A DNA stretch of 64,000 nt from Candidatus Methanophagales archaeon (GTDB taxonomy: Archaea; Halobacteriota; Syntropharchaeia; Alkanophagales; Methanospirareceae): the NCBI GenBank assembly GCA_003336485.1, contig QENH01000200.1:7510-71509 (forward strand). The letters are read 5' to 3'. Of the stretch, positions 1 to 42,870 are shown in pieces. The stretch's first letter is position 1. Every line of letters starts with the position of its first letter. The translations under genes and the position numbers were made by a program. The notes under the pieces are model-generated. The model worked only from the letters and a program-made list of their open reading frames with translations. It made no database searches and was not told where the DNA came from.

Positions 1-1
1 C

Positions 2-883: not shown

Positions 884-930
884 CCGAAAGAATTTTATAG
901 ATTAATACACTATAAGCAAAGAGGCAGACT

Positions 931-3642: not shown

Positions 3643-3645
3643 GCC

Positions 3646-4536: not shown

Positions 4537-4648
4537 TTAACCTAGTTTTAATAAATTAAAGCGGACATATATCGCTAATTATATATATGTACCACGCCAG
4601 TAATTATTTTATACTATCTAAGATTTAAGAACTAATAGTGAGTGGGAA

Positions 4649-7249: not shown

Positions 7250-7320
7250 CAGGGGTTATGTGATGTCCAAAGGTATTCTCGTGAAAATCAGTGTAATCTT
7301 GTGGTTGCTATAAAAAGGAG

Positions 7321-8205: not shown

Positions 8206-8270
8206 TTTTATTATTTCTTTTGGTAAAGCTTTTCTTTCTAAGAAAAGGTTTCCATTAAGTTAAAGAAGAC

Positions 8271-11486: not shown

Positions 11487-11534
11487 CTTGACGAATAGAA
11501 TAATGCAAAAAGATATGAGGTGAAAAAGAAGAAA
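11487..11534 (+). promoter_or_regulatory. Conserved 5' leader/promoter block shared by the three beta-helix paralogs. The other copies are at 14288-14322 and 16057-16107.
   Basis: The block ATGACGAATAGAATAA(A)TG(C/A)AAAAG recurs immediately upstream of each paralog start. Confidence 0.4.
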
Positions 11535-13940
11535 ATGAAAAAACCAATAGCAATTTTATTGATAGCTGCAATATTAACGCTAGGCATAGCTACAAGTGCA
11601 CTGCCATTCTCATTCTCAACTTGCGCAACTACAAATAACCAAGGATCTCCACTACTGGCAACAGCCATGCCAGCACTAGCACAAGGTAGCAATGGCACTC
11701 CTAGCGAAGGCGACGCCAGTAGTATGGAAATTCCCCCGAATGCTGAGGAAAATGAGATAACAACGGGCAAGGAGTACTTAAACACCATACAAATGGACGG
11801 TTCTTCATCAGCTCTTTCACATGATGATACAAAGCTTCCATACAACTCTTCGGGTAACAGACAAAAAGGCAGAGATATGCATACATTAGGGAAAATACCG
11901 AGTGAATCGGAACAGCCAGTAGAAGTATCAAAACCACCATTGAAAGGATCTAAACAGCCAGTAAAAGTATCGAAACCGCCAATTAAAGAATCCAAACAAC
12001 AATTAGTACATAATATAAACACAGGCGAGGACTTCACCACGATCCAAGCAGCAATAGATGATCCTGATACATTGGATGGACATACGATTACGGTTGATCC
12101 GGGAACGTATACGGAGAATGTAGCTGTTTACAAGTCTTTAACTATACACTCAACCACAGGTAATCCATTAGATACGATTGTTCAGACGAATTCTGATGAC
12201 CATGTCGTTAATGTATCTGCGGATTATGTGAACATAAAGGGGTTTACGGTGTCGGTGATAGATGATTGGATGAAGGCGGGAATATATCTCGGAAGCGGAG
12301 TGGATCACTGCACCCTCTCTGATAATAATATGACAGATACTTGGTGGGGCATCTATCTAGATCATTCCAACCACAACTATCTCTCTAACAATAACGCCTG
12401 GTATAACGAGTATGGCATCTCTCTGGATTATTCCAGCAACAACTGTCTCTCTAACAATAACGCCTGGTATAATAACGAGTATGGCATAGGTCTATCTCAT
12501 TCCAGCAACAACTGTCTCTCTAACAATAATATCTCGGATTTTAACTTTTATAGCATCTACCTATTGGAATCTAGCAACAACTCCATCTCTAACAATAATC
12601 TCTGGAATAACGAGGATGGCATATACCTATCTTATTCCAGCGACAACTATATTTCTAACAATAATGGTTGGGCTAACAATGGTTATTTCATTAGGCTGTC
12701 GCATTCCAGCAACAACCATATTTCTAACAATAATGCATGGTCAAACTTCTTGGGTGGTATCCGTTTGTCACATTCCAGCAACAACACGATCTCCAACATT
12801 AATACTTCGAACAACGATTTCTTTGGCATTTGTCTATCTGATTCCGACAACAACGGTCTCTATAACAATAATGTCTCGAACAACGGGGATTATGGTATCT
12901 GCCTCTCTTCCTCGAGTAGCAACACCATCTACAACAACTACTTCAACAACACGAACAACGCCTATGATGATGGAACCAACATCTGGAACATCTCAAAAGA
13001 AAATGGACCAAATATCATTGGTGGTGACTATCTTGGTGGGAACTATTGGAGCGATTACACGGGCATAGATGAAGATGGCGATGGACTTGGAGATACTTTG
13101 CTACCATACAACTCTTCTGGTGAGATCCAAAATGGCGGTGATTTGCGGCCATTAGTTACAGCGTGTTTTACACCGCCGGAGATCACTTCTTCCGCCCCTC
13201 TTTCTCCGGTTAACGATACAATATGCACATGGCGGACATTTAACGTTACGGTAGATCAGACGGTGAACGTGCGCTGGTATTTGAACGATATGTTATTATT
13301 CACGAACCTAAGTGTGCGAAAAGCCGATTGCACACTCCATGCAGAGGTTGTGGGAGAACACAACGTAACAGCAAATGCATCGAATGCAAATGGCTCTGAT
13401 CTGCAGACCTGGATCTGGAATGTGACTGGTTTTACTGCGGAGCCGCCTGAAATAACATACTATGCCCCCAAATCGCCGGTTAACGATACCCGAAATGCAA
13501 CAAGGACATTCAACATCACAATCAATCAATCAGTAAATGTTAGTTGGCAGATAAACGGCACGACAGTTCAGGCCAATGAGGGTCTAACCGAAGCATCATA
13601 CACGAATACAAGTGCGGTCATTGGGACCTGGAACGTTTCTGTGATTGTAAGCAATGCAAATGGGACCGACATGCAGACGTGGATATGGACTGTAACATCA
13701 CCATGTTTCATAGCAACAGCAGCATATGGGACGCCATTGCACGGAGATATAGACGTTTTGAGAGATTTCCGAGACGAATATCTGATGTCGAATCCAACCG
13801 GGAGAGCATTTGTAAAAGTTTATTATAATGCAAGTCCCCCAATTGCTGATTGGATAAGGGCGAATGAAGGATTGGGAACTGCTGTACGGGAAGGTTTTGT
13901 TAAACCATTAGTGTATGTTACGAGGATGTTTGTAGGCTGA
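11535..13940 (+). CDS. Secreted right-handed parallel beta-helix (PbH1/NosD-like) repeat surface protein, paralog 1
   Basis: Signal peptide [22 protein letters not shown] (ORF-track start at 11520 adds a K-rich extension). Sequence features in order:
- K/P-rich 11-aa repeats ([11 protein letters not shown]);
- ~22-aa PbH1 repeats (GIxLxxSSNNxxSNNN);
- NosD-like tail [28 protein letters not shown];
- two ~90-aa Ig-like repeats;
- a conserved C-terminal CFIATAAYG domain. Confidence 0.8.
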
Positions 13941-14322
13941 GCGGGGATATTTTGAACTGAATTCTGTCATCGCGATAACACGTCCCAAAGTTGGCTCTTC
14001 GTCCGTCCAGAACTCCCACATATCTTCATCACACGCCGAGTCATATATTCGCGGTGAATTCTCAGTATTGTCTGTCTCACCCTTATCCCGGTCATTGGTG
14101 AGCCAAGCAGTAGAGGAGAGCAACAATAATTTTTGAAGGGTGTATAGCGCGGTTTATTTCGATTATTCAGCCCTGCTTGTGGAGTCGAAAGAGGTTTCTA
14201 CTTTTGGAGTTATAAGGTCACAACTTGTTTATACGTTATCAACACACCAAAATAACACCTGTTCATTCTACCGAGGGTGTTTTATATCAACATGACGAAT
14301 AGAATAAATGAAAAGGAAAAAA

Positions 14323-15876
14323 ATGAAAAACCCAATAGCAATTTTATTGATAACTGCAATATTAACGCTAGCCATAGCTACAAGTGCACTGCCATTCTCG
14401 GCTTGCGCAACTACAAATAACCAAGATTCTTTGATACGGGCAACAGCCATGCCAGCACTAGCACAAGATAGTAAGGATACTCCCTGCGAAGACAACGCCA
14501 ATAGTATGGGATTTGCCCCGAACGCTGAGGAAAATGAGATAACAACGGGCAAGGAGGGCTTAGACACCATACAAATGGACGGGTCTTCATCAGCTCTTTC
14601 GCATGGCGATACAAAGCTACCATACAACTCTTCTGGCAACATAAAAAATGGCGGAGATCTGCATACATTAGAGAAAAAATCGAGTGGATCGAAACCGCCA
14701 GTGAAAGTATCGAAACAGCCGGTGAAAATATCGAAACCACCCGTGAAAGTATCTAAACTACTTTTAGTTCATAATAGGGACACCGGCAAGAACTTTGCTA
14801 CGATACAGGCTGCGATTGATGATTCTGATACCGTAGATGGGCATACGATTATGGTTGATCCAGGAACGTATACGGAAAATATAGTTGTTTACAAGTCTCT
14901 AACGATCAGATCAACCACAGGTAATCCGGCGGATACGATTGTCCCGGCTGCGGATTATAGAGCTCATGTCTTTAATGTGACCGCGGATTATGTGACTATA
15001 CGCGGGTTTACGGTATCGGGGGCAAATGATTATGATACACTGCCGGCCGGAATATATCTGGGAAACGGAGTGGATCACTGCAACATCTTAGATAATAATC
15101 TAATTGACAATTGGAGGGGCATCGATATATACTATTCCAACAACAACGGTCTCTCTAACAATAACGCCTGGTATAACGAGTATGGCATCGGTCTATCTCA
15201 TTCTAGCAACAACTGTCTCTCTAACAATAATATCTCGAATTTTAACCATTATAGCATCTACCTATTGGAATCTAGCAACAACTCCATCTCTAACAATAAT
15301 CTCTGGGATAACGAGTATGGCATATATCTGTCTTATTCCAGCAACAACTATATTTCTAACATTAATGGTTGGGCTAACAATTGTCATCTCATTACGCTGT
15401 CACATTCCTGCAACAACCATATTTCTAACATTAATGCATGGTTAAACTTCTATGGGGGTATCAGTTTGTCACATTCCAGCAACAACTCTATCTCAAACAT
15501 TAATACTTCGAACAACGATTTCTTTGGCCTCTATCTATCGGATTCCGACAACAACTGTCTCTATAACAATATTGTCTCGAACAACGGGGATTATGGTATC
15601 TACCTCTCTTCTTCTAGTAGCAACACCATCTACAACAACTATTTTGACAACACGAACAATGCTTGGGATGACGGAAGCAACATCTGGAACATCACGCCGA
15701 CCTTAGGCGAGAATATCATTGGCGGTTGCTTGCAGGGAGGTAATTATTGGAGCGATTACACGGGCATAGATGAAGATGGTGATGGACATGGAGATACAAT
15801 GCTACCATACAACTCTCCTGGTGAGATACAAAATGGCGGCGATTTGCGACCATTGGTACCTAGAACGTTTTTATGA
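14323..15876 (+). CDS. Secreted beta-helix repeat surface protein, paralog 2 (lacks the C-terminal domain)
   Basis: It has the same signal peptide and N-terminal region as paralogs 1 and 3, PbH1 repeats and the NosD-like tail, but ends at ...GDLRPLVPRTFL with no Ig-like or CFIATAAYG domain. Confidence 0.7.
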   Translation: MKNPIAILLITAILTLAIATSALPFSACATTNNQDSLIRATAMPALAQDSKDTPCEDNANSMGFAPNAEENEITTGKEGLDTIQMDGSSSALSHGDTKLPYNSSGNIKNGGDLHTLEKKSSGSKPPVKVSKQPVKISKPPVKVSKLLLVHNRDTGKNFATIQAAIDDSDTVDGHTIMVDPGTYTENIVVYKSLTIRSTTGNPADTIVPAADYRAHVFNVTADYVTIRGFTVSGANDYDTLPAGIYLGNGVDHCNILDNNLIDNWRGIDIYYSNNNGLSNNNAWYNEYGIGLSHSSNNCLSNNNISNFNHYSIYLLESSNNSISNNNLWDNEYGIYLSYSSNNYISNINGWANNCHLITLSHSCNNHISNINAWLNFYGGISLSHSSNNSISNINTSNNDFFGLYLSDSDNNCLYNNIVSNNGDYGIYLSSSSSNTIYNNYFDNTNNAWDDGSNIWNITPTLGENIIGGCLQGGNYWSDYTGIDEDGDGHGDTMLPYNSPGEIQNGGDLRPLVPRTFL

Positions 15877-16107
15877 TTGTACGCAATGTTTTGGCTGCAC
15901 AATGAGATTTTTTTATATATATATCAAGCCAAAATGTTCTAGCAAGCAGGTAGCGGCATTTTCCACTTGAAGAGTAAAAAACCCCTATCGTACCCATTTT
16001 ATGAGTCCCTAACACCTATGAATATGACATATTCACCCAACCTATGTCTTTTTATGCAGATATGATGAATAGAACAAATGCAAAAGTATGATGTGGAAAA
16101 GATAAAA

Positions 16108-19100
16108 ATGAAAACCCCAATAGCAATATTATTAATAGCCGCAATATTAACGCTAGCCATAGCTACAAGTGCACTCTCATTCTCGGCTTGCGCAACTACA
16201 AATAACCAAGAATCTTCGACATTGGCAACAGCCATGCCAGCACTAGCACAAGGTAGCAATGGTACCCCTAACGAAGACGACACCAGTAGTAGGGGATTTA
16301 CCCCGGATGCTGTGGCATGTGTCTTAACAAAGGACGTGGTGGCCTTTGATACCGTACAAATGGACGGTTTTGCATCTGCCCTTTCGCATGAAGATACAAC
16401 GCTTCCATACAACTCTTCGGGTAACAGACAAAAAGGCAGAGATATGCATACATCAGGGAAAATACCGAGTGAATCGGAACAGCCAGTAGAAGTATCAAAA
16501 CCACCATTGAAAGGATCTAAACAGCCAGTAAAAGTATCGAAACCGCCAATGAAAGAATCCAAACAACAATTAGTACATAATATAGACACAGGCGAGAACT
16601 TCACCACGATACAAGCTGCGATTGGTGATCCTGATACCGAGAATGGGCATACGATTACGGCTGATCCGGGAACGTATACGGAGAATGTAGTTGTTTACAA
16701 GTCTTTAACTATTCGCTCAACCACAGGAAATCCAGCAGATACGATTGTTCAGGCGGCGGATTCCTATGATCATGTCGTTAATGTGACTGCGGATTCTGTG
16801 ACTATAAGCGGGTTTACGGTGTCGGCGATAGATGGATATGCTGCAGGGATATATCTTGGAAGCGGAGTGGATCACTGCAATATCTCTGATAATAATGTAA
16901 CTGTCACTTATGGGTCGGGTATATATCTAGATTGTTCTAGCAACAACCTTATCTCTAACAATAATGCCTGTGGTAACGGGCCATCTGGCATCGAGCTGTC
17001 TCATTCCAACACCAATACTATCGTTAACAATACTGCAGACTATAATGACGAATATGGAATCCATCTGGATTATTCCAGCAACAACTTCATCTCTAACAAT
17101 AATGCCAGCGGGAATAACGGGCATGGCATCTATCTATCTCATTCCAACAACAACTCTCTTTCTAGCAATAATGTCTCGCAGTGTTGGTATGGCATCTATC
17201 TATCTCATTCCAACAACAACTCTCTTTCTAACAGTAATGTTTGGGGATTCGATGATGATGGCATCAGTCTATATTATTCTAGCAACAATTCGCTCTATAA
17301 CAATAACGTCTGGCTTAGCAGTGGTACGGGCATCCGTCTGTCATCTTCCAGCCACAACTCGCTCTCTAACAATAATGTCTTTAGTAACCTTGCTTTTGGC
17401 ATCGCGCTATATGGATCCAGCAACAACTCTCTTTCTACTAATACCCTAGAAAATAACGATTATGGCATCGAGCTGTCTCATTCCACCTGCAACTCGCTCT
17501 ATAACAATAATGTCTTGAAGAATGATGAGCATGGCATCCACCTCTCTTCTTCAGATAGCAACCTCATCTACAACAACATTTTCAACAACACGAACAACGC
17601 CTATGATGATGGAAGCAACATCTGGAACATCACAAAAGAATATACCCCAAACGGGAACATCATTGGCGGTCCTTACTTAGGGGGGAACAATTGGAGCGAT
17701 TACATGGGCATAGATAAAGATGGCGATGGACTTGGAGATACTTTGATGCCATACAACTCTTCGGGCGACATCCAAAACGGCGGCGATTTGCGGCCATTAG
17801 TGGAACCATCTGAACTACCAGTACATAATACAAACACAGGCGAGAACTTCGCCACGATACAAGCTGCGATTGATGATCCTGATACCGTGAATGGGCATAC
17901 GATTACGGCTGATCCGGGAACGTATATAGAGAATGTAGTTGTTTACAAGTCTTTAACTATGCACTCAACCTCAGGAAATCCATCAGATACGATTGTTCAG
18001 GCGGCGGATTCCTATGATCATGTCGTTAATGTGACTGCGGATTATGTGACTATACGCGGGTTTACGGTGTCGGGGGCATCATATGGATGGGATATAGCGG
18101 GAATATATCTTGGAAGCGGAGTGGATCATTGCACCATCTCTGATAATAATATAACTGACAATGGGTGGGGCATCTATCTGGATCATTCCAGCCACAACCA
18201 TCTCTATAACAATAATGTCCGGGGTAACGTCGGCGTTAATGGCGGCGGAATCAGGCTGTCATATTCCGGCGGCAACACTCTCTCTAACAATAACGTCTTG
18301 AACAACGAGGATGATGGCATCTGGCTATATCATTCCAACAACAACACTCTCTCTAACATTAATGCATCGCATAACTACTTTGGCATCATTCTGTCACATT
18401 GCAGCAACAACTCGCTCTTTAATATTGATGCTTCTAACGCATTCGCAAGCATATGGCTCTCTCAATCCAGCAACAACTCGCTCTTTAACATTAATGCCCG
18501 CCACAGCTCTGGTGACGCCGGCATTGTGCTGTTTCAATCCAGCAACAACTCGCTCTCTAACATTAATGCATCGGATGTCATGGGTTATCCTGGCATACAC
18601 CTCTCATCTTCCAGCAACAACTCGCTCTTTAACATTAATGCCTTTAACAACTTTTTAGGCATCGAGCTGTCAGATTCCAGCAACAACACTCTCTATAACA
18701 ATAATGTCTCGAATAACTATCTGTGGGGCATCGAGCTGTCACATTCCTCCTGCAACTCGCTCTATAACAATAATGTCTCGAACAATTATGATCTTGGCAT
18801 CCGCCTCTCTTCTTCAAACAATAACCGCATCTACAACAACATTTTCAACAACACGAACAACGCCTATGATGATGGAACAAACATCTGGAACATCACAAAA
18901 GAATATACGCCAAACGGGAACATCATTGGCGGTACTTACTTAGGGGGGAACAATTGGAGCGATTACATGGGCATAGATGAAGATGGCGATGGACTTGGAG
19001 ATACTTTGCTGCCATACAACTCTTCGGGCGACATCAAAAATGGCGGCGATTTGCGGCCTTTAGTGGAACCATCTGAACTACCAGTACATAATATAGACAC

Positions 19101-20616
19101 AGGCGAGAACTTCGCCACGATACAAGCTGCGATTGATGATCCTGATACCGTGAATTGGCATACGATTACGGCTGATCCGGGAACGTATACGGAGAATGTA
19201 GTTGTTTACAAGTCTTTAACTATTCGCTCGACCACAGGAAATCCATCAGATACGATTGTTCAGGCGGCGGATTCCTATGATCATGTCGTTAATGTGACTG
19301 CGGATTCTGTGACTATAAGCGGGTTTACGGTGTCGGGGGCACCAAGTTGGGATAGTGCAGGGATATATCTTGGAAGCGGAGTGGATCTTTGCACCATCTC
19401 TGATAATAATATAACTGACAATGGGAGGGGCATCTATCTGGATCATTCTAGCCACAACACTCTCTCTAACAATAATGCCCTGAAGAACTTTTGGTGTGGC
19501 ATCTATCTAGATTATTCCAGCAACAACAAGCTCCTCAACAATACTATCTTTCGAGGCGATTATGGCATCTATCTGGATTATTCCAGCAACAACTTCCTCT
19601 ATAACAATACTGTCGATTGGAGCGGTATGGAAGGCATAATTATGTCACATTGCAGCAACAATTCGCTCTTTAACAATAATGCCTGGGGTGTCAATGGTCC
19701 AGGCATCCATCTATCTTCTTCCAGCAACAACAACAATCTCTCAAACAATAATGCCTGGCATAACCTTGATGGTATCATTCTGTCACATTGCAGCAACAAC
19801 TCGCTCTTTAACAATAACGCCTGGTATAACGAGTATGGCATAGGTCTATATCATACCAACAACAACACTCTCTCAAACATTAATGCATCGCATAACGACT
19901 TTGGCATCTATCTGTATCATTGCAGCAGCAACTCGCTCTTTAACAATAACGCCTTTAACAACTATTTTGGCATCGAGCTGTCACATTCCAGCAACAACTC
20001 TATCTCAAACATTAATACATCGAACAACGATTTCTTTGGCATCTATCTATCTGATTCCGACAACAACTGTCTCTATAACAATATTGTCTTGAAGAATGAT
20101 GAGCATGGCATCCACCTCTCTTCTTCAGATAGCAACCTCATCTACAACAACATTTTCAACAACACGAACAACGCCTATGATGATGGAAGCAACATCTGGA
20201 ACAGCACAAACACCACGGGACCGAACATCATTGGTGGACCTTATATTGGCGGTAACTATTGGTCTGATTATGCAGGTATTGATTCGAATCATGATGGTTT
20301 TGGCGATACGCCTTATAATATACCGCCAGGCGGCATTAGCAAAGATTATTTACCGCTGGTTCCTGTTGAACCATCACCATGTTTCATAGCAACAGCAGCA
20401 TATGGTACGCCATTGCACGATGATATAGACGTTTTGAGAGATTTCCGAGACGAATATCTGATGATGAATCCAACAGGGAGAACATTTGTAAAAGTTTATT
20501 ATACATTGAGTCCACCGGTTGCGGATTTGATAAGGGGAAATGAAGGACTGGGAACTGCTGTACGGGAGGGTTTTGTTAAACCCTTAGTGTATGTTACGAG
20601 GATGTTTGTAGGCTGA
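16108..20616 (+). CDS. Giant secreted beta-helix repeat surface protein, paralog 3 (three tandem NosD-like modules)
   Basis: The same signal peptide is followed by three ~420-aa modules, each starting [22 protein letters not shown] and ending ...[13 protein letters not shown], then the C-terminal CFIATAAYG domain. The ORF-track start at 16078 is an upstream in-frame ATG. Confidence 0.8.
16576..20345 (+). repeat. Three tandem ~1.25 kb coding modules inside paralog 3. They start near 16576, 17824 and 19087, with a period of about 1248-1263 bp.
   Basis: Read directly from the sequence. Module ends are about 95% identical at nucleotide level (for example 17650-17822 vs 18900-19083), while interiors differ in PbH1 repeat content. 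Confidence 0.85.
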
Positions 20617-22996: not shown

Positions 22997-24343
22997 ATGG
23001 ACCTCGAGGGATTTGCGAAGCGGAAATTAAGAGAAGGCGAAGCAGACAGTAGGATAATGGCAGAGTTGTGCACTCGCATATTAGAAATAAAGCGTGATCG
23101 TATAACGAGAGAAAAGGCCGATGCGATTTCTAACGCGGTATTAGAAGAAGCTAAGATGACGCTCGATTTTAATGACGCACTTATCACCGAACTCAAATCA
23201 GACGTAAGAATGGGCGAGTTGGGAGTTGGATCCCGAGGCGCAGGTGATTTTTATGCCCATGAGAAGATAGGCGAGCTAATAGGTGCTACGGGCGCCGTAG
23301 TTGACTCATCGAGCCTGAGTGATTCGGGTGTGGTGCGTCTCCCGGCAGGGAATAAGGAGAAGTTAATTGTGGTGACGGTAGACGGAATGCATTCGCGGCT
23401 GAGCGATTTCCCGTTTCTCGCTGGTTTTCATGTTGCGCGTGCGGCACTTCGTGACGTGTACGTAATGGGCGCCACACCAGTTGCGTTACTTTCAGACATT
23501 CATGTGGCGGATGACGGCGACGTTGCGAAGATATACGACCATATCGCAGGCATTTCCACTGTCTCAGACGCTGCAAACGTTCCGCTTGTTACGGGCTCAA
23601 CATTGAGAATCGGTGGTGATGTGGTAATAGGGGAACGGATGACGGGCTGTGTAGGCGCAGTTGGCGTGGCTGATACTGTCGTAACGAGAGAAGGCGCAAA
23701 AGAAGGTGATCTGATTTTGATGAGCGAAGGCGCAGGTGGAGGCACTATAACCACTGCCGCTTTGTATTACGGTGAACCGGAAGTGGTGCGGGAAACGCTG
23801 AACATAAAATTCCTGGACGCTTGTAATGCGCTTATCAAAGAAGACCTAGTGAAGAAGGTACATCTAATGACCGATGTCACGAACGGCGGAATCAGGGGCG
23901 ATGCAAATGAGATAGCAAAAGTGTCACACGTGAAACTCGTCTTTCATGAAGATCGAATACGTAATTTAGTAAATAAAAAGGTGCTTGCAATGCTAAAACG
24001 GCGTGCGATAGACTATTTGGGCGTATCTCTGGATGCACTTCTGGTCATTTGTCCCGCGGAAGTTGCAGAAGATGTTGAAGCAGTTGTAAGGGGCGCCGGG
24101 GTGCAAATAGTGGAGATTGGCAAAGTTGTAGCGGGAGAAGGTGCTGAAATTGTTGTTGACAGTGAAGCTAAAGATTTTTCGCCTAAATTCCGTGAGTCTG
24201 CTTATACGCCGATAAAGAAGGTTGTGGGTGAATCAGGGCAGAATTTTGAAGCGATGAAGCGGAAAGTGGATAAGGCGGTTGAAGACGCAGTCAGGAAGAA
24301 AGATGCGGTAAAAAGGATTTTGGAATCTTCACAATACCCATAG
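22997..24343 (+). CDS. AIR synthase-related (PurM-like superfamily) protein
   Basis: 448 aa with a PurM-like N-domain (VDGMHSRLSDFPFLAGFHVARAALRDVYVMGATP) and a C-domain, as seen in methanogen PurM-like proteins. Confidence 0.65.
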   Translation: MDLEGFAKRKLREGEADSRIMAELCTRILEIKRDRITREKADAISNAVLEEAKMTLDFNDALITELKSDVRMGELGVGSRGAGDFYAHEKIGELIGATGAVVDSSSLSDSGVVRLPAGNKEKLIVVTVDGMHSRLSDFPFLAGFHVARAALRDVYVMGATPVALLSDIHVADDGDVAKIYDHIAGISTVSDAANVPLVTGSTLRIGGDVVIGERMTGCVGAVGVADTVVTREGAKEGDLILMSEGAGGGTITTAALYYGEPEVVRETLNIKFLDACNALIKEDLVKKVHLMTDVTNGGIRGDANEIAKVSHVKLVFHEDRIRNLVNKKVLAMLKRRAIDYLGVSLDALLVICPAEVAEDVEAVVRGAGVQIVEIGKVVAGEGAEIVVDSEAKDFSPKFRESAYTPIKKVVGESGQNFEAMKRKVDKAVEDAVRKKDAVKRILESSQYP

Positions 24344-25066
24344 ATATATTATTGCAATCAGTACTGGCTGATGAATAAGGTAAATTAGTAATGAATGCCT
24401 ACCAAAAAGGCAAAGCAATCTTATAACCGCGGAATTAGAAAGGTCACAAAGGTTAAAACGCCGTGTGCAGTCGGGATATAACATATATCCAAGAAATAGC
24501 CCGATTAGGATCACGCCGAACCAGGGTAAAATCGGGAAATAGTCTATAGTATAAAAGTGCTCGGGCGTGAGCCCTAACCACATCAACCAGGAGAACCCCA
24601 AAGTATAGTTCTTTAAGTATAGTCCAAGCGATACGAAAAGAACACCCGGCATCAGATTCCATAAACGGAGTTTTAAGAATGGATAAGCCATAATAATCGA
24701 AATCCCAATAAGATGAAGAACACCAAAAACAACAAAACCCGCTCGCAAAAAGAGCCAGGTCGCTATGCTGATGACCAAACCCCATGCAAATATTTTTAGA
24801 CCCCGTTTGAGATATTTCCGGTATAATCTCTTCCTCTGTTTCTTCTTAGCTCTAGAGTAACTAATGGTTAGTGAGATACCGACCAGAAGAATAAATATTG
24901 TCGCTGTTGCACGCCCAAAATATAACCAGAAACCTGAATGTACGTTAAGATCGTATCCGCCAAAATAATCCAGATCGTAGAGTAAATGGAACAGGATCAT
25001 CATGAATATAGCAATTCCACGCATAAAATCTAGCTCCCAAAATCGCTGCTCCAACTTATTAGCCAT
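24329..25066 (-). CDS. DUF1624 / acyltransferase-3-like integral membrane protein
   Basis: The start is placed at MANKLEQRFWELDFMRGIAIFMMILFHL, the FMRG..I motif of the DUF1624 / heparan N-acetyltransferase-like family. The protein is multi-TM. Confidence 0.55.
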   Translation of the reverse strand: MANKLEQRFWELDFMRGIAIFMMILFHLLYDLDYFGGYDLNVHSGFWLYFGRATATIFILLVGISLTISYSRAKKKQRKRLYRKYLKRGLKIFAWGLVISIATWLFLRAGFVVFGVLHLIGISIIMAYPFLKLRLWNLMPGVLFVSLGLYLKNYTLGFSWLMWLGLTPEHFYTIDYFPILPWFGVILIGLFLGYMLYPDCTRRFNLCDLSNSAVIRLLCLFGRHSLLIYLIHQPVLIAIIYLWVL

Positions 25067-25146
25067 TAAAAACGAAATGTAAACGAAAGCTTTTATATTC
25101 AGAAACTTTGATATTGGATTATAACTCACGTGAAGGGTAGTGCGAA

Positions 25147-25872
25147 ATGACGACATGGACTGAATTGAAGTTTGGAGGCAGGACTTTTTCCCCGGAAGTG
25201 CGGAAATTGGGCGATATGAAGGAAGTCGTATTAGACAAGCGCTTTTTAGCGTGTGCGGACATGGATATGGCGCTGTATTTCATGTTCAGGGAAGTATCAA
25301 AGAATGAAGAGGACGAGAAGCGGATAAAAGAAAGAGAGCTGAGATACGACATCACTATTATCCCCCCGAATACGCTCGGCGCGGAATTTGTTAAAACCGC
25401 GGGACACTATCATCCCCTTATACCGGGTTCACAAATGACATATCCCGAGATGTACGAGGTATTAGAAGGCGAAGCACATTATCTTTTACAGTGCAGAGAT
25501 GAAGATGGCGGTACCGAGAAGATAACAGATGTAGTTGTGGTAAAGGCGAAAAAAGGCGATACTGTTATAATACCGCCCAATTACGGGCATGTTACGATAA
25601 ACCCATCTGAAGCGACGTTAAAAATGGCTAACTGGGTTGCAAGGGCTTTCTCTTCGATCTACGAGCCGATACGAGTAAAAGGCGGTGCCGCGTACTTCGA
25701 GCTGACCAACGGCGAGTTTATTAAGAACGAAAAATATGGGGCCGTGCCTGATATTAGGTTCCTTAAGCCTGAGGCGACAGGGATAAAGCAAATAAAGCTG
25801 AACAAAGAAGTGACAATGTACGAACTACTTCGAGAGCCCGAAAAGTTGCAGTTCCTTATATCACACATTTGA
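25147..25872 (+). CDS. Cupin-type glucose-6-phosphate isomerase (cPGI)
   Basis: Signature motifs TIIPPNTLGAEFVKTAGHYH (TxxPxxxGxExxxTxGHxH) and PPNYGHVTIN (PPxxxHxxxN). The 241-aa length fits archaeal cPGIs. Confidence 0.6.
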   Translation: MTTWTELKFGGRTFSPEVRKLGDMKEVVLDKRFLACADMDMALYFMFREVSKNEEDEKRIKERELRYDITIIPPNTLGAEFVKTAGHYHPLIPGSQMTYPEMYEVLEGEAHYLLQCRDEDGGTEKITDVVVVKAKKGDTVIIPPNYGHVTINPSEATLKMANWVARAFSSIYEPIRVKGGAAYFELTNGEFIKNEKYGAVPDIRFLKPEATGIKQIKLNKEVTMYELLREPEKLQFLISHI

Positions 25873-26025: not shown

Positions 26026-26844
26026 ATGACGCTAAGAGATTATTTAAAGGATTCTGAGATGAAAGGTGTTGAACTACAAAGGAATCCGTATCTCATCAGT
26101 GCTTTCTATTTGATCCTGATAACAATTGCAGAGTGGGTAACAAATTATCATCCTAAATTTGGGATTGCATCACACGTTTTCATCATGATCCTACTGTTTT
26201 GTCATTTCGCTCTGGTATCAGACAAAGATGATAATTTAGCACATTATCTTATTGCTCTTCTTCTCGCCCCGCTTATACGTATACTGAGCTTATGTCTACC
26301 ATATATACAGTTCAGTTGGATCTTTAGCTTCACGCTCGTGTCAATACCACTATTCATAGCGATCTTTACCTGCATGTGGCTGCAAGGGCTACACGGAGCG
26401 GATGTTGGGTTTTCGTCACCCAAGTTGAAGTACCTGCCACTAGAAGCAGGAATAATTCTTTTTGCCGTAGCTCTGGGAATAGCGGAATATATGATTTTAA
26501 GACCCAACCCATTGCCGGCGTCAGGAACATTGAATTTAATCATCGCATCACTACTTTTAATAATATGCACGGGCTTTTTAGAGGAGCTGATCTTCAGGGG
26601 TTTGCTACAATATAATGCAGTAAGAGTGATGAGTAAATGGCGTGGTATCTTTATTGTATCCGCTATTTTCGGCGTGCTTCACCTTGGAAATATATCCCCG
26701 TGGCATTTAGATTGCTTCTTTGCTGGCGCTGTTGGGTTTCTGTTTGCCGTAGTGCGCGATAAAACAGGATCAATACACGGTATAAGCTTCGCGCACGGCA
26801 TTATAAACATAGTTCTGTTTTTAATCGCACCGCTTTATTTTTGA
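26026..26844 (+). CDS. CPBP family intramembrane glutamic endopeptidase (CAAX protease / Abi)
   Basis: Multi-TM protein with the FLEELIFRGLL motif (EExxxR) and the FGVLH motif. Confidence 0.7.
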   Translation: MTLRDYLKDSEMKGVELQRNPYLISAFYLILITIAEWVTNYHPKFGIASHVFIMILLFCHFALVSDKDDNLAHYLIALLLAPLIRILSLCLPYIQFSWIFSFTLVSIPLFIAIFTCMWLQGLHGADVGFSSPKLKYLPLEAGIILFAVALGIAEYMILRPNPLPASGTLNLIIASLLLIICTGFLEELIFRGLLQYNAVRVMSKWRGIFIVSAIFGVLHLGNISPWHLDCFFAGAVGFLFAVVRDKTGSIHGISFAHGIINIVLFLIAPLYF

Positions 26845-26901
26845 TCGTCTGTATTTTTCTTTTGAGTTCAAAACACAGATTATCGCCTTTAGCCCTTACC
26901 C

Positions 26902-27774
26902 CTACCTCTTTTTCAACCGGTTACTTATAGAAGGATAGAAGATAAATGCCAGAGGCACGAGGAATAGCATGACGATTGCCACTTTGCCTGTGGCCGAGCC
27001 AGAAGAGAAGAGGGTAAGAAGAATAGGGTCTTCCTTTTGTACCTCAAAGAGGTAGGGGACGGTATCGCCCATGAACTCCTTTGTTCTATTGAGAATGCCA
27101 TCGTAAGAGCCGTTACGCGATGCGAGAGCTGAGATACGGACCATAGTAACGGTATTTGACGCGAAAGTTTCCTTCACGTAGAAATAAAGCACGACCCTTC
27201 GCTCTGTTACCTTCCCTTCTTCCTTTGATTCCTTCGTGACAATGAGCTTCTTTGCTGCTATCGTCTCATTAAAGACTAAACCATGTTCTCTTTCATACTC
27301 TTCCGACCGCCAAAATCCGGCTGCCCAACTTACATTATGCACCGGCACCTCTGCTATGCCTTCCTCTTTTATCGTATAGCCCAACGCGGGATAGCAAACA
27401 ATAGGCGGATGGAAGCTAGAGCGGTTATTTGATTGCATGATGAGAAAGAATACCGGCTGGTAATATTTCGGATGCGAGTATGCACGCATGAGCATTACGT
27501 CCGCGTTCAAGCGTTCTGCAAGACCTGTCGTGTTGTACTCATAGGCAGTCCAATTCCCTAGCTGCTCTGGGAACTTCTGTAGGTGCTCGTTGTTTCCGAA
27601 GTCCATCTTTGTTCGAACAGGCGTGGCATCGTCAGAAGCATACGAGAGCTCGGTATCTATCGTGGTGATCGTTCTGGCGAGTATCATAGACGGTGTTGAA
27701 AAGACGATGATAATAACGAAAACGAGCAAAAGGAGCCCTATGACCCGTGAATATTCTTCAAAGAAACTCCTCAT
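26902..27774 (-). CDS. Archaeosortase-associated protein, possible EpsI analogue
   Basis: 290 aa with an N-terminal TM, a large extracytoplasmic domain and a C-terminal TM. Its start is a 4-nt ATGA overlap with the stop of the archaeosortase gene, in the same gene order as bacterial epsH-epsI. Confidence 0.4.
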   Translation of the reverse strand: MRSFFEEYSRVIGLLLLVFVIIIVFSTPSMILARTITTIDTELSYASDDATPVRTKMDFGNNEHLQKFPEQLGNWTAYEYNTTGLAERLNADVMLMRAYSHPKYYQPVFFLIMQSNNRSSFHPPIVCYPALGYTIKEEGIAEVPVHNVSWAAGFWRSEEYEREHGLVFNETIAAKKLIVTKESKEEGKVTERRVVLYFYVKETFASNTVTMVRISALASRNGSYDGILNRTKEFMGDTVPYLFEVQKEDPILLTLFSSGSATGKVAIVMLFLVPLAFIFYPSISNRLKKR

Positions 27775-28628
27775 TTCGTTCTCCCCGTAACTTTACACCC
27801 AAAGAGACTACTTATTAGTATCAAGAATATAAGCGCGATGATGAATAGCAGGGGGCTGAAAAGGGTATGGTAAAATCCTGTTGCCGTCTCCGCGCCATAT
27901 GCGTTTGCAATTAGTAGTAGAGATGTAACCCGGATGATATTGGCGAGGATTGCAAGAGGGGGCGTTATACAGAGCAAGATGATCTTCTTATACAACGGGC
28001 ACCGTAAAATGTAGATGAATAGCGTTGCTATTGCCAATAGCGAGATGAGCGAATTCATGCCGCTGCATGGCAAACCGATAATGAAAGCGGCATCTTCAAG
28101 CCGAATCTCCGCCCCTATCCGTGTAACGGGAATACCAAGCATTTCGAGAATTAATGCAGGGAAATATGCAGACAGAGTTTGTAGTGCGTTTGCGACTTTT
28201 CCCAGGAACTCTGGTGGCAATGGGATAGCGAAGATAAGATAGGCGATTGGAAATATGAGAGTGCGCATCAGAGGTTTACCATAGAAATAAAGGATCAAAC
28301 CGCTTGTTGTGAATAAGAATGATAGCGCGGATAAGAAAGGGAAGAGCTTGATAATGCCGATGATATAAAGGATAAGGCCAAAGGCGAAGACGTAGATTCC
28401 TGGTTTACAGGGTTCCTGATTGTCTCCCGGCTCGCTCTTCTTATAGTCTCTGACATTCCACCACGCGATAACGCATGATATAATTAGGATCAAGAACCCA
28501 TGTGTGTAGCACGGATCGGTCCGCCAGAAACTGGCTAACCATATCGGTATAAAGTTGGAAAAAGGCGATGGGAAATATAAAATGACTAAGAGCAGCAAGA
28601 TAAAAATAGTGGTCTTCTTCATCTTCAT
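27771..28628 (-). CDS. Archaeosortase (exosortase/archaeosortase family transpeptidase)
   Basis: 285 aa, polytopic. It carries the family catalytic motif PCSGMNSL (Cys), a conserved Arg in NIIRVTSLL, and an N-terminal lysine-rich stretch followed by a TM. Confidence 0.7.
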   Translation of the reverse strand: MKMKKTTIFILLLLVILYFPSPFSNFIPIWLASFWRTDPCYTHGFLILIISCVIAWWNVRDYKKSEPGDNQEPCKPGIYVFAFGLILYIIGIIKLFPFLSALSFLFTTSGLILYFYGKPLMRTLIFPIAYLIFAIPLPPEFLGKVANALQTLSAYFPALILEMLGIPVTRIGAEIRLEDAAFIIGLPCSGMNSLISLLAIATLFIYILRCPLYKKIILLCITPPLAILANIIRVTSLLLIANAYGAETATGFYHTLFSPLLFIIALIFLILISSLFGCKVTGRTK

Positions 28629-28661
28629 ATACTTCTCTTTATACTAAGTTCTTAATATTTA

Positions 28662-29030
28662 TTATTTGAGTATCGCGTTGTACTCATAAGTGAACTCCAT
28701 TGTGACAAGCTGGAAACGATAATTAACGCTATATCTTCTCTCGGTCTTCGCCGGAAATACCATCTCGTTCTGAGCACCATCTTCGTTCCACCTTATTGAT
28801 ACCACAATATCGCCGGAATTATTCAGCGTCACAATATGACTACCAACAATGCTTGCATGCCATAAATCCACATGTATCTCAAAATCGGTCACCTCACAGC
28901 CGAGATCGTTTATCTGTATCGCATGTTTTTCGTTCTCGTTACCCATTAATCCAAATGCAGATGCCGAGTTAAGAGAAGCCGCAAGAAGTAATGCTATAAC
29001 AACGCCAAATAAGAGATCTCGCCTTCCCAT
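28662..29030 (-). CDS. Small secreted protein
   Basis: Signal peptide MGRRDLLFGVVIALLLAASLNSASA, 122 aa. It lies 34 nt upstream of the archaeosortase gene on the same strand. Confidence 0.45.
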   Translation of the reverse strand: MGRRDLLFGVVIALLLAASLNSASAFGLMGNENEKHAIQINDLGCEVTDFEIHVDLWHASIVGSHIVTLNNSGDIVVSIRWNEDGAQNEMVFPAKTERRYSVNYRFQLVTMEFTYEYNAILK

Positions 29031-29098
29031 AATTATATTAATAGATACAAAAAATATAAATACGAGCAGGACCTTCTTGTGTAAGAAGGAAATAAAAG

Positions 29099-30076
29099 AT
29101 GAGAACTGCGTGGTTGGGGATACGGATGGGGCTTTGTGTATTGCTCCTGTTTGCGGTGATCTATGCGCTATTAATCGTCATAGCTACAGCTACCGGAGTG
29201 GGCACGCCGATAGTTTACGCTCTACTTGCTGCTGGATTAGTGGCTGTTCAGTTCATTATAGGTCCAAAGATAGTAGAGAAGACCATGCACGTTCGCTATG
29301 TTTCAGAGACGGAAGAGCCGGAATTGCATCGGATGGTGACGGAATTAGCGATGAAAGCAGGGATACCCAAGCCAAAAGTAGGGATTTCTGAAATAGCGAT
29401 ACCGAATGCGTTCGCGTTCGGCACATCAAAAAGGAAAGCAAGGGTTTGTGTTACTAGGAGATTGATGCAGATGCTAAGCAGAGATGAGTTAGAAGCGGTT
29501 TTAGGGCATGAAATATCACACATACAGCATCACGATATGGTAGTTATAACCGCGCTGAGTGTAATACCGATGATCTGCTACTTTATCTATTTCAGCTTCT
29601 TCTGGTCCGGTCTCTTTGGTGGCGGCGATAGCGATAGAGAAGGGGCGTTACCTATGATGGCGATTGCACTTATTGCATTTGCATTATACTTCATAAGCAA
29701 CCTCATCGTGCTTTATGGATCGCGAATAAGGGAATATTATGCAGATGCCGGAAGTGTAGAGCTAACGAATAAGCCTCATGAACTTGCTTCTGCGTTATAC
29801 AAAATGATCTATGGTAGTGCAGGAGTGAAACAAGAGAAGTTGAAGAAAGAACTGGGCAGCATGCGCGCTTTCTTTGCCGCAGATCCTGTAACAGCACGAG
29901 GCGATTTAAAGGATCTGAGCGCTGCTGACCTGGACAAGGATGGTAAGATAGACGCCCATGAACTGAAAATATTCGCAGAACGGGCGCAGGTGAGTCGTGC
30001 GGACAGGTTGATGGAGATCTTCTCCACGCATCCAAATCCCGTGAGTAGAGTTAAGAAGTTGGGTGAGTATTTATAA
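29099..30076 (+). CDS. htpX: HtpX-like M48 zinc metalloprotease
   Basis: HEISHIQHHD (HExxH) plus an HtpX-like TM topology, 325 aa. Confidence 0.8.
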   Translation: MRTAWLGIRMGLCVLLLFAVIYALLIVIATATGVGTPIVYALLAAGLVAVQFIIGPKIVEKTMHVRYVSETEEPELHRMVTELAMKAGIPKPKVGISEIAIPNAFAFGTSKRKARVCVTRRLMQMLSRDELEAVLGHEISHIQHHDMVVITALSVIPMICYFIYFSFFWSGLFGGGDSDREGALPMMAIALIAFALYFISNLIVLYGSRIREYYADAGSVELTNKPHELASALYKMIYGSAGVKQEKLKKELGSMRAFFAADPVTARGDLKDLSAADLDKDGKIDAHELKIFAERAQVSRADRLMEIFSTHPNPVSRVKKLGEYL

Positions 30077-39366: not shown

Positions 39367-40503
39367 CTACCTTTTTCGTCCTACCAGATATGCTACTGCT
39401 AATAGCCCTGCAATAGCGAATACCATTTCAAACCCTATTGTTTCCCTTGGACTAGGTGTGGCCATTGTCCTGGTTGTCGCAGGTGTAGAAATTAGATCCA
39501 CTTTAACAGGAAGCATTATGCTTTTATATTCCGCAGTTGACTTATCTCCTCCAAAATAATAACAAATATCGCTCTCAACATTGAACACACCAACTTGATT
39601 CGTTTTTATGCCCACCCCGATATGTCTTTCCTTTCCCGGTTCTACGGTATAATTAGCTGTATACATACCTGCTCCAGATTCTATAAATTCTATGGATGTA
39701 ATGCTCATTCCTGATGGGACTTTTAGTATCAGTTGCAAAGTCATCGTTGGCTTTGTTATTAGATTGACCGCAGAAAGAGATAATAGAATATCTTCTCCAA
39801 CAGTGACATCTGTCTTTTCTCCATGGAGATAAACACTTGGTTCTCCGGGTTTGGGAGTTGGTGGCGGGGTCTCAGTTGGTGTTTCTGTTGGCATAGAAGT
39901 GTATGTTGATGCCTGTGTGGACGTAGTTATTGTTGGAGTTGGTATGTAGGAGGGGGTAGGTGTTATAAATGGCGTGGGACTCGGTGCTTGTAAGTGGAAA
40001 GGAGTAATAGTAGGTAAATGTTTTGGTGAAGGAGTTATAGCAGGAGTTGGACTTGGTGAAGGTGTTGGTGAAAGTATTGGTGAAGGTGTTATGGTAGGAG
40101 TTGGACTTAGTGTGGGTGTTGGTGAAGGTGTTGGCGAAGGTGTTGGCGAAGGTGTCAATACCTTATAACTCACGGAGATAGTTTTTGTAGCGGTATCACC
40201 AGCATTATCAGTTGCTTCCACTTTTATTATATTGGTGTTGGGGTTTAACGAAATGGTTTTACTCCAGAAAGATGTGCCTGATGCAAGCTCTCCGTTGACC
40301 AGGACACCCTCAATTACTGCTCCCGGAGAAGTGGGGAATGCTGTACCAGAAACCGTTATGGTACCCGTAATCACTTCTGCCTCATCTTCAGGTGTAGCTA
40401 TTTCCAACAAAGGAGCACTTGCAAGCACGGATGTCAAAGAATATATAAGTAAGAAAATGCTGATAGGTACTATAATGAAACCCCTCAAACCTATCCTTTT
40501 CAT
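39367..40503 (-). CDS. PGF-CTERM-anchored surface protein with a Pro/Thr/Ser-rich linker
   Basis: - Start placed at [19 protein letters not shown] (signal/TM).
- Long TPSPTPSP linker.
- C-terminal [23 protein letters not shown], a PGF-CTERM archaeosortase A sorting signal. Confidence 0.7.
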
Positions 40504-40513
40504 GCCAACCTCT

Positions 40514-42811
40514 TTACTGTTCCAATCTAACAATTGGTATCCAAGTATTATAAACTATTATGCTTAGATATGTTTCGGGACCCGTATCAAATTCACTTTC
40601 TGTTGCAACAATAGTAACTTCCCTTGGCTTTGCGATATTTCCTTCTTCATCATTGGCATGTATTATAAAAGTATATCTACCCTCCTTCTTCGGAACAAAG
40701 CTCACCATATACCTATTTCCTACCTCTTCTTTTAACTCCAATGTGGTCAAGTTTATTTCATACATTGTATCATTGCTTATCTGGTCTATGGCAAAATCAG
40801 GTTCAATCAGGGTTACATATACACGCTCTACCTTCAAATCATCTACTACTACCGCCCATATCTCTATTTCTTCACCCACCATCACAGTCTGATTATCAAT
40901 TGAATCTAAGATAGTTGGAGGGAAATCAAGGGCTCCGAATTGGGATCCTATGTATGTTGACGATGACAAAGAGCCATCTCCAGGATATACTGGTGCGGGA
41001 TGCCCAATTCCATCACCATTGTCATCCAACAACGAAATTTGAGGCGATAATCCTACTTTATCGAGCGTATCAGAATATGCTTTTATCTCAGGCACATTTG
41101 ATGTTTCTTCAAAAGCTTCTTTTATGTTCTTCCCTTTTGCTATCGAGTTGAAGAAATATTTTGAGAATGTAGCGCCTGTTTGCTCTATCAACGAATTCGC
41201 TTTTGCGCCCGTTGATGTTACAATTATCCTGCCAGCCGTTGAAAGATTACAAATGAAACTGCCAGAACTACACGATTCTATCACCACCGTTATCTTATAG
41301 CATCCCGTATCAGCGGACAATTCATCCAGATTAGAATCCAACTCCGAAGAACTCAATGTCTCTCCAAGTCCTTTTAACAGAAGCATATCTTCTTTTCCAT
41401 GACCTATTATGTAAATGAACAATGGGACCTCGGTGCCTACTTTCCCCTCTGCCCATGTGTTTATCGCATACGAAATATTTTCCTTTGATGTTTGCATGTC
41501 TACTCTCTCAAAGTTCATGGGACTGAGATAAAATAGCCTTTCATCAGTGAAGCCGCGCTTCAAGAGTGTGTCATAAGTCATGTTTGCTGTCAGGTCAATG
41601 TAATTCTGCGATAGCCATTCGTCGTTTCTGCCAACGATTATAATTGCATATCCTACTTCAATACGGTATTGTTTTACGGTAAAACACATAGTTTCGCTCT
41701 TTATCGCTTTCCCTCCGATAACACAAGAGGCATTTACGTTCCATTCTCCGACCTCATTTGGCGGAAAAGTAATGGCGTAGGAGCCGCTTAATGTGGTCAT
41801 TACAGGCTGCTCTGCAATTTCACCTGTGGGCGATTTGAATATCATGGTTACTATTGTGCTGGATGCAGGAACTATTTCTCCAGAAACCGTTACGCTTTCT
41901 GATCTGTTCAACATAGCAGGACTTACTGAGATTGTGATATGTGTTGGTGGGGTTGGAGTGGGAGTTGGATATTCGTAAGTTGTGGGGGATGCAACAGGTG
42001 TTGGCGTTTGCTGAGCTGAGGGTGAAGGCGTTAATGTTTGAGAAGGTGAAGGTTCTGGAGTGGGAACCGCTCCTCTTGCCTCCTTCTTATCCACTATAAA
42101 ACCAAAAGCAATACCGCTACCATCAGTTTCGAGCTTAATCTTTAACGTGTCCCCAGTGAACCATTCCGTCCACATATCCGCTTCACTTAAAGGGCCCCAA
42201 CTGTATCCATATGTTGCAAGTTCATTCTTGTCTATATCGAGTATCCGCACATAATCATCTTCCAAGAGTTCTATCTTGGTAAAATGAATCCTCATTTCAG
42301 CTACTCCCGGTTCCGAGATGGTCCAGATGTTTTCATAGTTGTTTGCATACGGATGATAGGTTTCTGCTAAATATGAGGATGTTGGTGCTGATTCTGTCCG
42401 CCTTTCCACTTCATCCACTATAAAACCAAAAGCAATACCGCTACCATCAGTTTCGAGCTTAATCTTTAACGTGTCCCCAGTGAACCATTCCGTCCACATA
42501 TCCGCTTCACTTAAAGGGCCCCAACTGTATCCATATGTTGCAAGTTCATTCTTGTCTATATCGAGTATCCGCACATAATCATCTTCCAAGAGTTCTATCT
42601 TGGTAAAATGAATCCTCATTTCAGCTACTCCCGGTTCCGAGATGGTCCAGATGTTTTCATAGTTGTTTGCATACGGATGATAGGATTCTGCTAAATACGA
42701 AGCTGAAACAGTTTGGATTCCGAGTGGGAAGATTCCGATTGACAAGACACATATCAAAAGGATACTACCTAAAAATATGCCGAGCTTCATGATTTTGCCC
42801 TTTCTCTTCAT
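40514..42811 (-). CDS. Secreted legumain/C13-like cysteine peptidase with two tandem CUB-like domains
   Basis: - Signal peptide.
- Two ~130-aa near-identical CUB-like domains ([18 protein letters not shown]...YVRILD...).
- Peptidase core with His in IIGHG and Cys in VIESCSSG, the C13/caspase-like dyad arrangement. Confidence 0.55.
42091..42694 (-). repeat. Near-perfect tandem duplication of the CUB-like domain coding segment (2 copies of ~324 bp)
   Basis: Read directly from the sequence: 42091-42370 and 42415-42694 are nearly identical. Confidence 0.85.
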
Positions 42812-42870
42812 GCTCTCTTCACACCATATAATAAAAAAAGTGAGGCTATTTTTTTTTTCGCCTCACAAGA
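42812..42870 (-). terminator. Hairpin plus oligo-T terminator-like structure after the stop of the PGF-CTERM gene at 42846-43538
   Basis: On the minus strand the sequence is GTGAGGC-GAAAAAAAAAATA-GCCTCAC followed by TTTTTTTT, and the hairpin spans the stop codon. Archaeal termination typically occurs at oligo-T tracts. Confidence 0.5.

Follow-up and report, generated by a model that had tools for sequence, protein, structure and literature searches.

Which protein-sorting system does a sortase-like locus of an uncultured methane-oxidizing archaeon represent, and which proteins does it sort? Exosortase/PEP-CTERM sorting has been described for diderm bacteria, and the distantly related archaeosortases for archaea (PMC1569441, PMC6098224, bioRxiv 10.1101/2023.06.07.544157). 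In the survey of 2006, PEP-CTERM was absent from Archaea (Haft 2006, PMC1569441). The stretch analyzed here, called the window, comprises 64,000 nucleotides of contig QENH01000200.1 from a Candidatus Methanophagales (ANME-1) archaeon. It encodes an exosortase-like membrane enzyme, an EpsI-family partner, a small beta-rich protein, and a CPBP-family intramembrane protease. Our analysis indicates that this locus probably represents the exosortase protein-sorting system in an archaeal form, with a C-terminal PEL tail as its signal.

An EpsH-type exosortase in an archaeon

The enzyme belongs to the exosortase/archaeosortase superfamily, as a preliminary description of the window had proposed. It matches PF09721 at 174.6 bits (cutoff, 25.7) in a Pfam profile search and the shared TIGR04178 signature at 59.9 bits (cutoff, 23). 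The only NCBIfam subfamily model that it passes is TIGR02602, the exosortase model (125.7 bits; cutoff, 105.55). Its strongest partial matches are the bacterial XrtW, XrtA, XrtV, XrtD, and XrtB, at 122–147 bits, and all of them fall short of their cutoffs (147.3 versus 425, 142.7 versus 208, 132.1 versus 313, 126.7 versus 400, and 122.1 versus 275 bits, respectively). ArtC reaches 49.2 bits against a cutoff of 100, and no other Art model gives a match at E ≤ 0.1. Because TIGR02602 and TIGR04178 alone are passed and the Xrt and Art cutoffs are missed, the 285-residue enzyme is, by profile search, an EpsH-type exosortase outside every curated Xrt or Art subfamily. Five relatives (L002, L010, L033, L036, and P0424) likewise pass TIGR02602 alone, and relatives at 38–70% identity as well as an Altiarchaeales homologue fit no curated Xrt or Art subfamily either.

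The preliminary description had called the enzyme an archaeosortase and had noted that its pairing with an EpsI-like protein mirrors the bacterial exosortase–EpsI arrangement. The pairing holds, and the archaeosortase assignment does not. Since family assignment does not make the enzyme an archaeosortase, the locus does not mirror the bacterial-type exosortase–EpsI arrangement but is that arrangement itself, in an archaeon.

Residues Cys188 (in GLPCSGMNS), Arg233 (in ANIIRVT), and His254 are invariant in a comparison of 15 homologues, in accordance with the catalytic cysteine and the conserved arginine noted earlier. A crude hydropathy scan finds seven hydrophobic segments, and about eight transmembrane (TM) segments are expected for the EpsH family. 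Sequence searches of the PDB with the exosortase and EpsI profiles returned no matches.

A doubly anchored EpsI partner

The protein encoded directly after the exosortase was predicted to be its EpsI-like partner, and a Pfam match and gene neighborhood bear this out. It matches PF11984 at 30.5 bits (gathering threshold (GA), 26.1), the alignment covering residues 53–144 only. In 26 of 27 related archaeal loci, an EpsI gene directly follows that of the exosortase. Its TIGR02914 score is 20.6 bits against a cutoff of 42.8, and its scores for EpsI types V and B are far under the cutoffs. A homologue search gives 345 matches at E ≤ 0.001. The best 120 of the 345 are 55–90% identical to the query, and nearly all of these 120 carry a precomputed PF11984 match.

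In agreement with the bitopic topology noted earlier, hydrophobic helices lie near both ends of the protein (residues ~14–32 and ~255–281), and an extracellular alpha/beta domain sits between the two TM helices. The motif FHPPxVCY (residues 121–128) is invariant, and it appears as HxPxxC[YF] in more distant relatives. Compared with the EpsI profiles of 174–221 positions, the C-terminal helix is extra. It is common to L029, L033, L035, and L036, whose exosortases are just 38–39% identical to that of the window. At 35% exosortase identity, L039 encodes a classical EpsI of 208 residues.

A PEL-type sorting tail beside the enzyme in related loci

Loci were collected from a species-representative genome collection, from metagenomes, and from contigs encoding selected homologues. 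The comparison covers 29 non-redundant loci whose exosortases share at least 47% identity with that of the window, and each count given below covers only the loci with enough flanking DNA for the test in question. The loci come from Methanophagales, Methanospirareceae, Syntropharchaeia-type 'Methanomicrobia' metagenome-assembled genomes (MAGs), Ca. Argoarchaeum ethanivorans, and Methanosarcinales MAGs.

In these loci, genes just upstream of the exosortase share a C-terminal tail of ~30 residues. The consensus of 18 distinct tails is P-[VIY]-P-E-L-[SP]-T-hydrophobic...G-L-L-x-L-A-G-Y-V...R-R-R, that is, a PVPEL(S/P)T motif followed by a TM segment and RRR. The tails have no invariant cysteine. 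A hidden Markov model (HMM) built from 16 tails gives 23 matches above 43 bits in the loci then collected, and more in three loci added later. Of the 22 loci in which upstream DNA extends to 700 bp or more, 17 contain a gene with the tail; this gene is on the same strand and no more than 5 kb upstream in 15 of the 22, and adjacent to the exosortase in 11.

The tail carriers are otherwise unrelated and have only the ~28-residue tail in common, which is the mark of a modular sorting signal. Pfam matches among them include Peptidase_C1 with or without a lectin-like domain, Peptidase_S8 with NosD, beta-helix, Big_1/TED, Big_1/Invasin, a Lamin-tail domain, and DUF2341. PEL-tailed papain-family (C1) peptidases are the commonest annotated neighbors of the exosortase (L015 7696–9830, L010 7872–9985, L019, L007, L026, and L027). 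They are often preceded by a PEL-tailed protein of a recurrent unannotated family, ~240 residues long and ending in ...SDPGYPVPELST. No CxxCH heme motif was found on PEL-tailed proteins, and no PEL-tailed multiheme cytochrome near the enzyme. Judged by this association of tail and enzyme, the cognate signal of the exosortase clade is a PEP-CTERM-like PEL tail.

Paralogous secreted proteins encoded downstream of the module in L009 (7809–9221 and 10113–11303) have a different shared tail, ...PEPSEPSN.RIPAIGAFGTLL.VITGFYLLVLLKRRC, which may be another sorting signal.

Organization and conservation of the module

Coordinates are given in Table 1. The five open reading frames of the preliminary description, from the CPBP gene to htpX, are all present in the sequence. 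On the minus strand, the small-protein gene is followed after a 33-nt gap by the exosortase gene and then by the EpsI gene. The ATGA overlap between the last two, reported earlier, is seen and suggests that their translation is probably coupled. The element TTTATATT is a putative promoter of the three-gene operon, judged by its TATA-like letters and position. The guanine-plus-cytosine (GC) content is even over the whole window.

Table 1 Features of the locus and of the candidate substrates named earlier, with positions in the window
Feature	Position	Strand	Remarks
CPBP (Rce1-like) glutamic-type intramembrane protease, 272 aa	26026..26844	+	Convergent with exosortase operon; PF02517
EpsI/DUF3485-family partner, 290 aa	26902..27774	-	Bitopic; PF11984
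EpsH-type exosortase, 285 aa	27771..28628	-	Polytopic membrane Cys transpeptidase (predicted); Cys188, Arg233, His254
ATGA overlap of exosortase stop (TGA) and EpsI start (ATG)	27771..27774	-	Read in the sequence
Small secreted or anchored beta-rich protein, 122 aa	28662..29030	-	Accessory module gene; no known family
TATA-like element TTTATATT	29053..29060	-	23–30 nt before small-protein ATG
HtpX (M48)	29099..30076	+	Divergent from operon
PGF-CTERM protein	39367-40533		PF18204 29.8 bits, GA 18.8
C13 peptidase	40514-42811		Pfam
PGF-CTERM protein	42846-43538		PF18204 25.6 bits, GA 18.8

The preliminary description had placed two flanking membrane proteases, CPBP and HtpX, in a surface-protein maturation module. 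The CPBP protease can be retained. A CPBP gene is near the exosortase in 11 of 14 loci and convergent in every case, and this position is kept over exosortase identities of 53–90% and otherwise differing neighborhoods. The protein matches PF02517 at 60.3 bits (cutoff, 22.4), and the catalytic motifs EExxxR, FxxxH, and HxxxN are intact (EELIFR186, FGVLH215, and HGIIN257). Its best NCBIfam matches are sub-threshold (MrtS, 41.6 versus 130; MrtJ, 36.4 versus 75; Mrt_core, 27.2 versus 100 bits). It is identical to the Methanophagales record RCV62798.1.

HtpX is confirmed as an M48 protease (PF01435, 137.7 bits; HEISH motif), but the 29 loci contain no HtpX homologue close to the exosortase. HtpX, an HGSNAT-like acyltransferase (24329–25156), and a cupin-type GPI (25147–25872) were considered as module members and rejected because none of them recurs in L001–L015, the loci screened for all three; HtpX is a chance neighbor.

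The small protein has a signal-like N-terminal helix followed by a beta-rich domain, consistent with the earlier statement that it is secreted. Homologues are found in six of the 29 loci. They lie between EpsI and CPBP in L010, L013, and L015, downstream of EpsI and ahead of the contig end in L066, and upstream of the exosortase, as in the window, in L016 and L018. The wider neighborhoods vary; in L013 and L015, an archaeal-type ribosomal-protein operon adjoins the module.

Several loci show duplications. Two tandem EpsI paralogues follow the exosortase in L064 (3617–5473), and two precede it in L033 (8207–9910). L040 has a tandem exosortase–EpsI–exosortase arrangement, and the separate exosortase loci L003 and L005 belong to a single MAG, CSMAG_2436. 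Close to the module, small DUF5678 genes turn up repeatedly (L013 11760–12391, L014 13561–13767, and L066 384–590) and look like mobile or toxin–antitoxin-like inserts. In L013, a DUF5678 gene and an Asp-protease-like gene are inserted between EpsI and the small beta protein.

A proposed sorting pathway

An archaeal exosortase system with the PEL tail as its signal would work as follows. The operon of small beta protein, exosortase, and EpsI would be read from the TATA-like promoter, with the CPBP gene convergent to it. Substrates would be exported by Sec and held in the membrane by the C-terminal tripartite signal, in which the PVPEL(S/P)T motif precedes a single hydrophobic helix and a cluster of Arg/Lys residues. 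The exosortase, with its Cys188, Arg233, and His254, would cut at the PEL motif through an acyl-enzyme intermediate on Cys188. It would then pass the mature protein to a surface acceptor, lipid or glycan, and the protein would stay on the surface of the anaerobic methanotrophic archaeon (ANME-1). EpsI, anchored at both ends beside the enzyme and carrying a Mog1/PsbP-like binding domain, probably presents the substrate or the acceptor, and may thus act as an adaptor outside the cell. Removal of the cleaved helix, or a second trimming cut, is probably the task of the CPBP protease.

We infer export, retention, cleavage, and transfer by analogy with the chemistry of sortases, exosortases, and ArtA. 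This chemistry is established for SrtA and ArtA. For exosortases, the chemistry was recorded as still untested in 2018 (PMC6098224).

Evidence for and against the exosortase reading

At the level of sequence, an archaeal exosortase system is supported by family membership, by the intact catalytic residues of exosortase and CPBP protease, by the conserved gene linkage, and by the association of tail and enzyme. Several observations weigh against it. The PEL tails are below the curated PEP-CTERM cutoff (TIGR02595, at most 11.6 bits versus 16), and PF07589, the Pfam PEP-CTERM model, is absent among the Pfam matches of tail carriers at E ≤ 0.01. In the window itself, no PEL tail is found by regular expression, the best HMM score is 6.4 bits, and tblastn with ten tail carriers gives no match. 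PEL tails are also absent from the flanks recovered from the Logan assembly SRR6058406, which carries the window's end genes. The exosortase of the window shares a six-residue N-terminal insertion with its 90%-identical relatives L001 and L014, with which it forms a sub-branch, and in both of these the EpsI after the exosortase is cut to a 57-residue remnant abutting the CPBP gene. The archaeal members of the system are known from sequence alone, and the function of EpsI is not known even in bacteria (PMC1569441). Since no PEL tail is present in the window or in the recovered flanks, the substrates of this exosortase copy must lie elsewhere in the genome.

In L001 and L014, the closest relatives, the EpsI remnant is found beside a transposase fragment (L001 1927–3752 and L014 8204–11826). 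Upstream, both loci also encode a second EpsI paralogue, 59% identical and in opposite orientation. A DUF2341 protein with a PEL tail is encoded ~6 kb downstream, likewise in opposite orientation.

Could the substrates instead be the two PGF-CTERM proteins and the C13 peptidase 10–15 kb away, which the preliminary description had proposed? All three are indeed encoded there (Pfam), and the enzyme would then be the archaeosortase of this genome. Both PGF tails pass PF18204. Moreover, a domain survey lists ANME-1 with PGF-CTERM domains and without ArtA and ArtC (PMC5244752), so that another enzyme might process them and a small chance is left that the exosortase handles PGF tails. However, the enzyme is of exosortase type, not Art type, and the tail that its relatives encode beside it is PVPEL, not PGF. 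The PEL-tail HMM leaves the PGF tails of the window unscored. These tails, which read IGFE and SGFE and thus lack the Pro of PGF, are below the TIGR04126 cutoff (18.8 and 15.4 versus 24.5 bits), and no C-terminal anchor is found in the C13 peptidase. Among neighbors tested in L001–L015 (PGF-CTERM genes were not queried), HtpX, cytidylate kinase, RtcB, cupin-type GPI, HGSNAT, and AIRS-like genes are not near the exosortase. With no link between these proteins and the module, we regard them as improbable substrates. An origin of the module as bacterial DNA, from a mis-binned contig or a very recent transfer and non-functional in the archaeon, would fit the top profile scores to bacterial exosortase models, a 64%-identical homologue labeled Nitrospiraceae on a 3-kb contig, and the first report of PEP-CTERM as absent from Archaea. 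Yet the window is archaeal throughout and even in GC: it encodes AglB with glycosyltransferases, RtcB, prefoldin beta, and an archaeal-type cytidylate kinase, in addition to PurD, NosD-like surface proteins, and the PGF-CTERM proteins. The EpsI of the window matches a 90%-identity cluster containing RCV62799.1, an EpsI-like Methanophagales protein from the same contig as RCV62798.1. The exosortase clade spans Methanophagales, Syntropharchaeia, Argoarchaeum, and Methanosarcinales at 53–94% identity, and its next named relative is from an Altiarchaeales archaeon (43%); a Chloroflexota protein (36%) is also among the outgroup. This spread, together with the Altiarchaeales relative, argues for long residence in archaea. 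With the catalytic residues all intact and the archaeal-type ribosomal operon beside the module in L013 and L015 as well, a bacterial contaminant or newcomer is very hard to credit.

The limits of the functional unit are a separate matter. If the exosortase–EpsI pair alone were the unit, the CPBP protease and the small protein would be unrelated neighbors. CPBP genes are common in archaeal genomes, the CPBP gene is missing in three of the 14 loci with enough sequence (L002, L005, and L025), and the small protein is present in just six of 29. Against this, the convergent CPBP position in 11 of 14 loci is maintained while the exosortases diverge and the neighborhoods change, and the small protein, when found, is always inside the module. 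Bacteria have an exosortase fused to a CPBP protease domain (XrtE, of the VPEID-CTERM system). A pair-only unit is accordingly unlikely. The archaeal exosortase system could also be more than a variant. Exosortase, doubly anchored EpsI, CPBP protease, and small beta protein may be the parts of a separate and so far undescribed machine for C-terminal sorting in monoderm archaea, with its own 'PEL-CTERM' signal. Such a machine would display cysteine and serine peptidases and adhesin-like proteins at the cell surface, shaping the ANME-1 envelope and the contact with partner bacteria; its hosts would be ANME-1, Syntropharchaeia, Argoarchaeum, and Methanosarcinales, and Altiarchaeales would have more distant versions of it. 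We put this forward tentatively, with somewhat more doubt than conviction.

Relation to known sorting systems

The closest described system is the bacterial PEP-CTERM/exosortase system (EpsH/XrtA with EpsI; Haft 2006, PMC1569441). In both, the enzyme passes TIGR02602 and has the Cys/Arg/His residues, and an EpsI-family gene lies right downstream, as in epsH–epsI of Methylobacillus. The tail, with PEL-S/P-T followed by ...GL..L.G... and RRR, is tripartite and close to PEP-CTERM, and it occurs on many unrelated secreted proteins. The differences are as follows. The archaeal host is monoderm, and the 2006 survey found no such system in Archaea. The third motif residue of the archaeal tail is Leu instead of Pro, and the TIGR02595 cutoff is missed. 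The archaeal EpsI, at ~290 residues versus profiles of ~174–221, gains a C-terminal membrane helix, and the module adds the CPBP protease and the small beta protein. The enzyme fits no specific Xrt subfamily model, and neither PrsK/PrsR/PrsT regulators nor exopolysaccharide genes are seen beside the archaeal module.

The archaeosortases ArtA–ArtE (PMC6098224) share with the enzyme the PF09721 and TIGR04178 superfamily and occur in archaea as well. Their surface proteins, too, carry tripartite signals at the C-terminus, and surface anchoring is the likely outcome. In contrast, the enzyme does not reach the Art models (ArtC, 49 versus 100 bits), the signal is PEP-like and not PGF, PEF, VPXXXP, or PIP, and an EpsI partner of archaeosortases is not mentioned in the literature searched. 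The myxosortase-type proteases MrtX, MrtS, MrtJ, and MrtA (bioRxiv 10.1101/2023.06.07.544157, PMC11980579) are CPBP glutamic intramembrane proteases, as is the CPBP protein of the window, whose motifs are intact; MrtS and MrtJ are its best NCBIfam matches, and the myxosortase families act on C-terminal sorting signals. However, the CPBP protein falls far short of the cutoffs, PEL tails lack the invariant Cys of myxosortase signals, and here the CPBP protease is found together with an exosortase instead of being the only sorting enzyme.

The preliminary description had considered the arrangement not clearly described for archaeosortases. In full-text searches of incomplete coverage, we found no description of an archaeal exosortase–EpsI system, only a domain-count table in PMC5244752. 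In public databases, relatives already bear the names 'exosortase/archaeosortase family protein' and 'exosortase-associated EpsI family protein', the latter given by NCBI to several of the EpsI homologues. Because both core genes are already auto-annotated, the archaeal module is a variant of the known exosortase system, not a new category.

An EpsH-type system with EpsI in uncultured methane- and alkane-oxidizing archaea would mean that this machinery works at a single-membrane envelope too. The envelope of ANME-1 and the attachment of its extracellular proteins are unresolved (PMC9012536, PMC5244752), and the PEL tail, being recognizable, can be used to predict the ANME-1 surface proteome. 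The doubly anchored EpsI and the linked CPBP protease are natural variants for studying the role of EpsI. The practical gain is modest: improved annotation, together with candidate surface peptidases and adhesins.

Other genes in the window

Residues 270–292 of HtpX form a C-terminal EF-hand/dockerin-like calcium-binding motif, DLDKDGKIDAHELKIF, which is unusual in HtpX. The PF13202 score is 25.9 bits, exactly equal to the cutoff. Dockerin/cohesin proteins are abundant in ANME genomes (PMC9012536).

Three tandem genes on the plus strand (11520–13940, 14308–15876, and 16078–20616) encode secreted NosD/beta-helix proteins with near-identical signal peptides. The first and third share a conserved C-terminal stretch of ~50 residues, without a match to any family and distinct from a TM anchor, which could be an unrecognized attachment or sorting domain.

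An N-glycosylation cluster is seen at positions 1–9600 and in L062. It comprises AglB/STT3 (4649–7249), several glycosyltransferases, and sugar aminotransferase, epimerase, and nucleotidyltransferase genes. The cluster lies ~20 kb from the exosortase, and no linkage of the two is seen in other loci. Finally, a type I restriction R subunit (HSDR_N/ResIII) is encoded at 58501–61530 on the minus strand and also in L063, with a gene for a YgjP-like metalloprotease after it, and is unrelated to the module.

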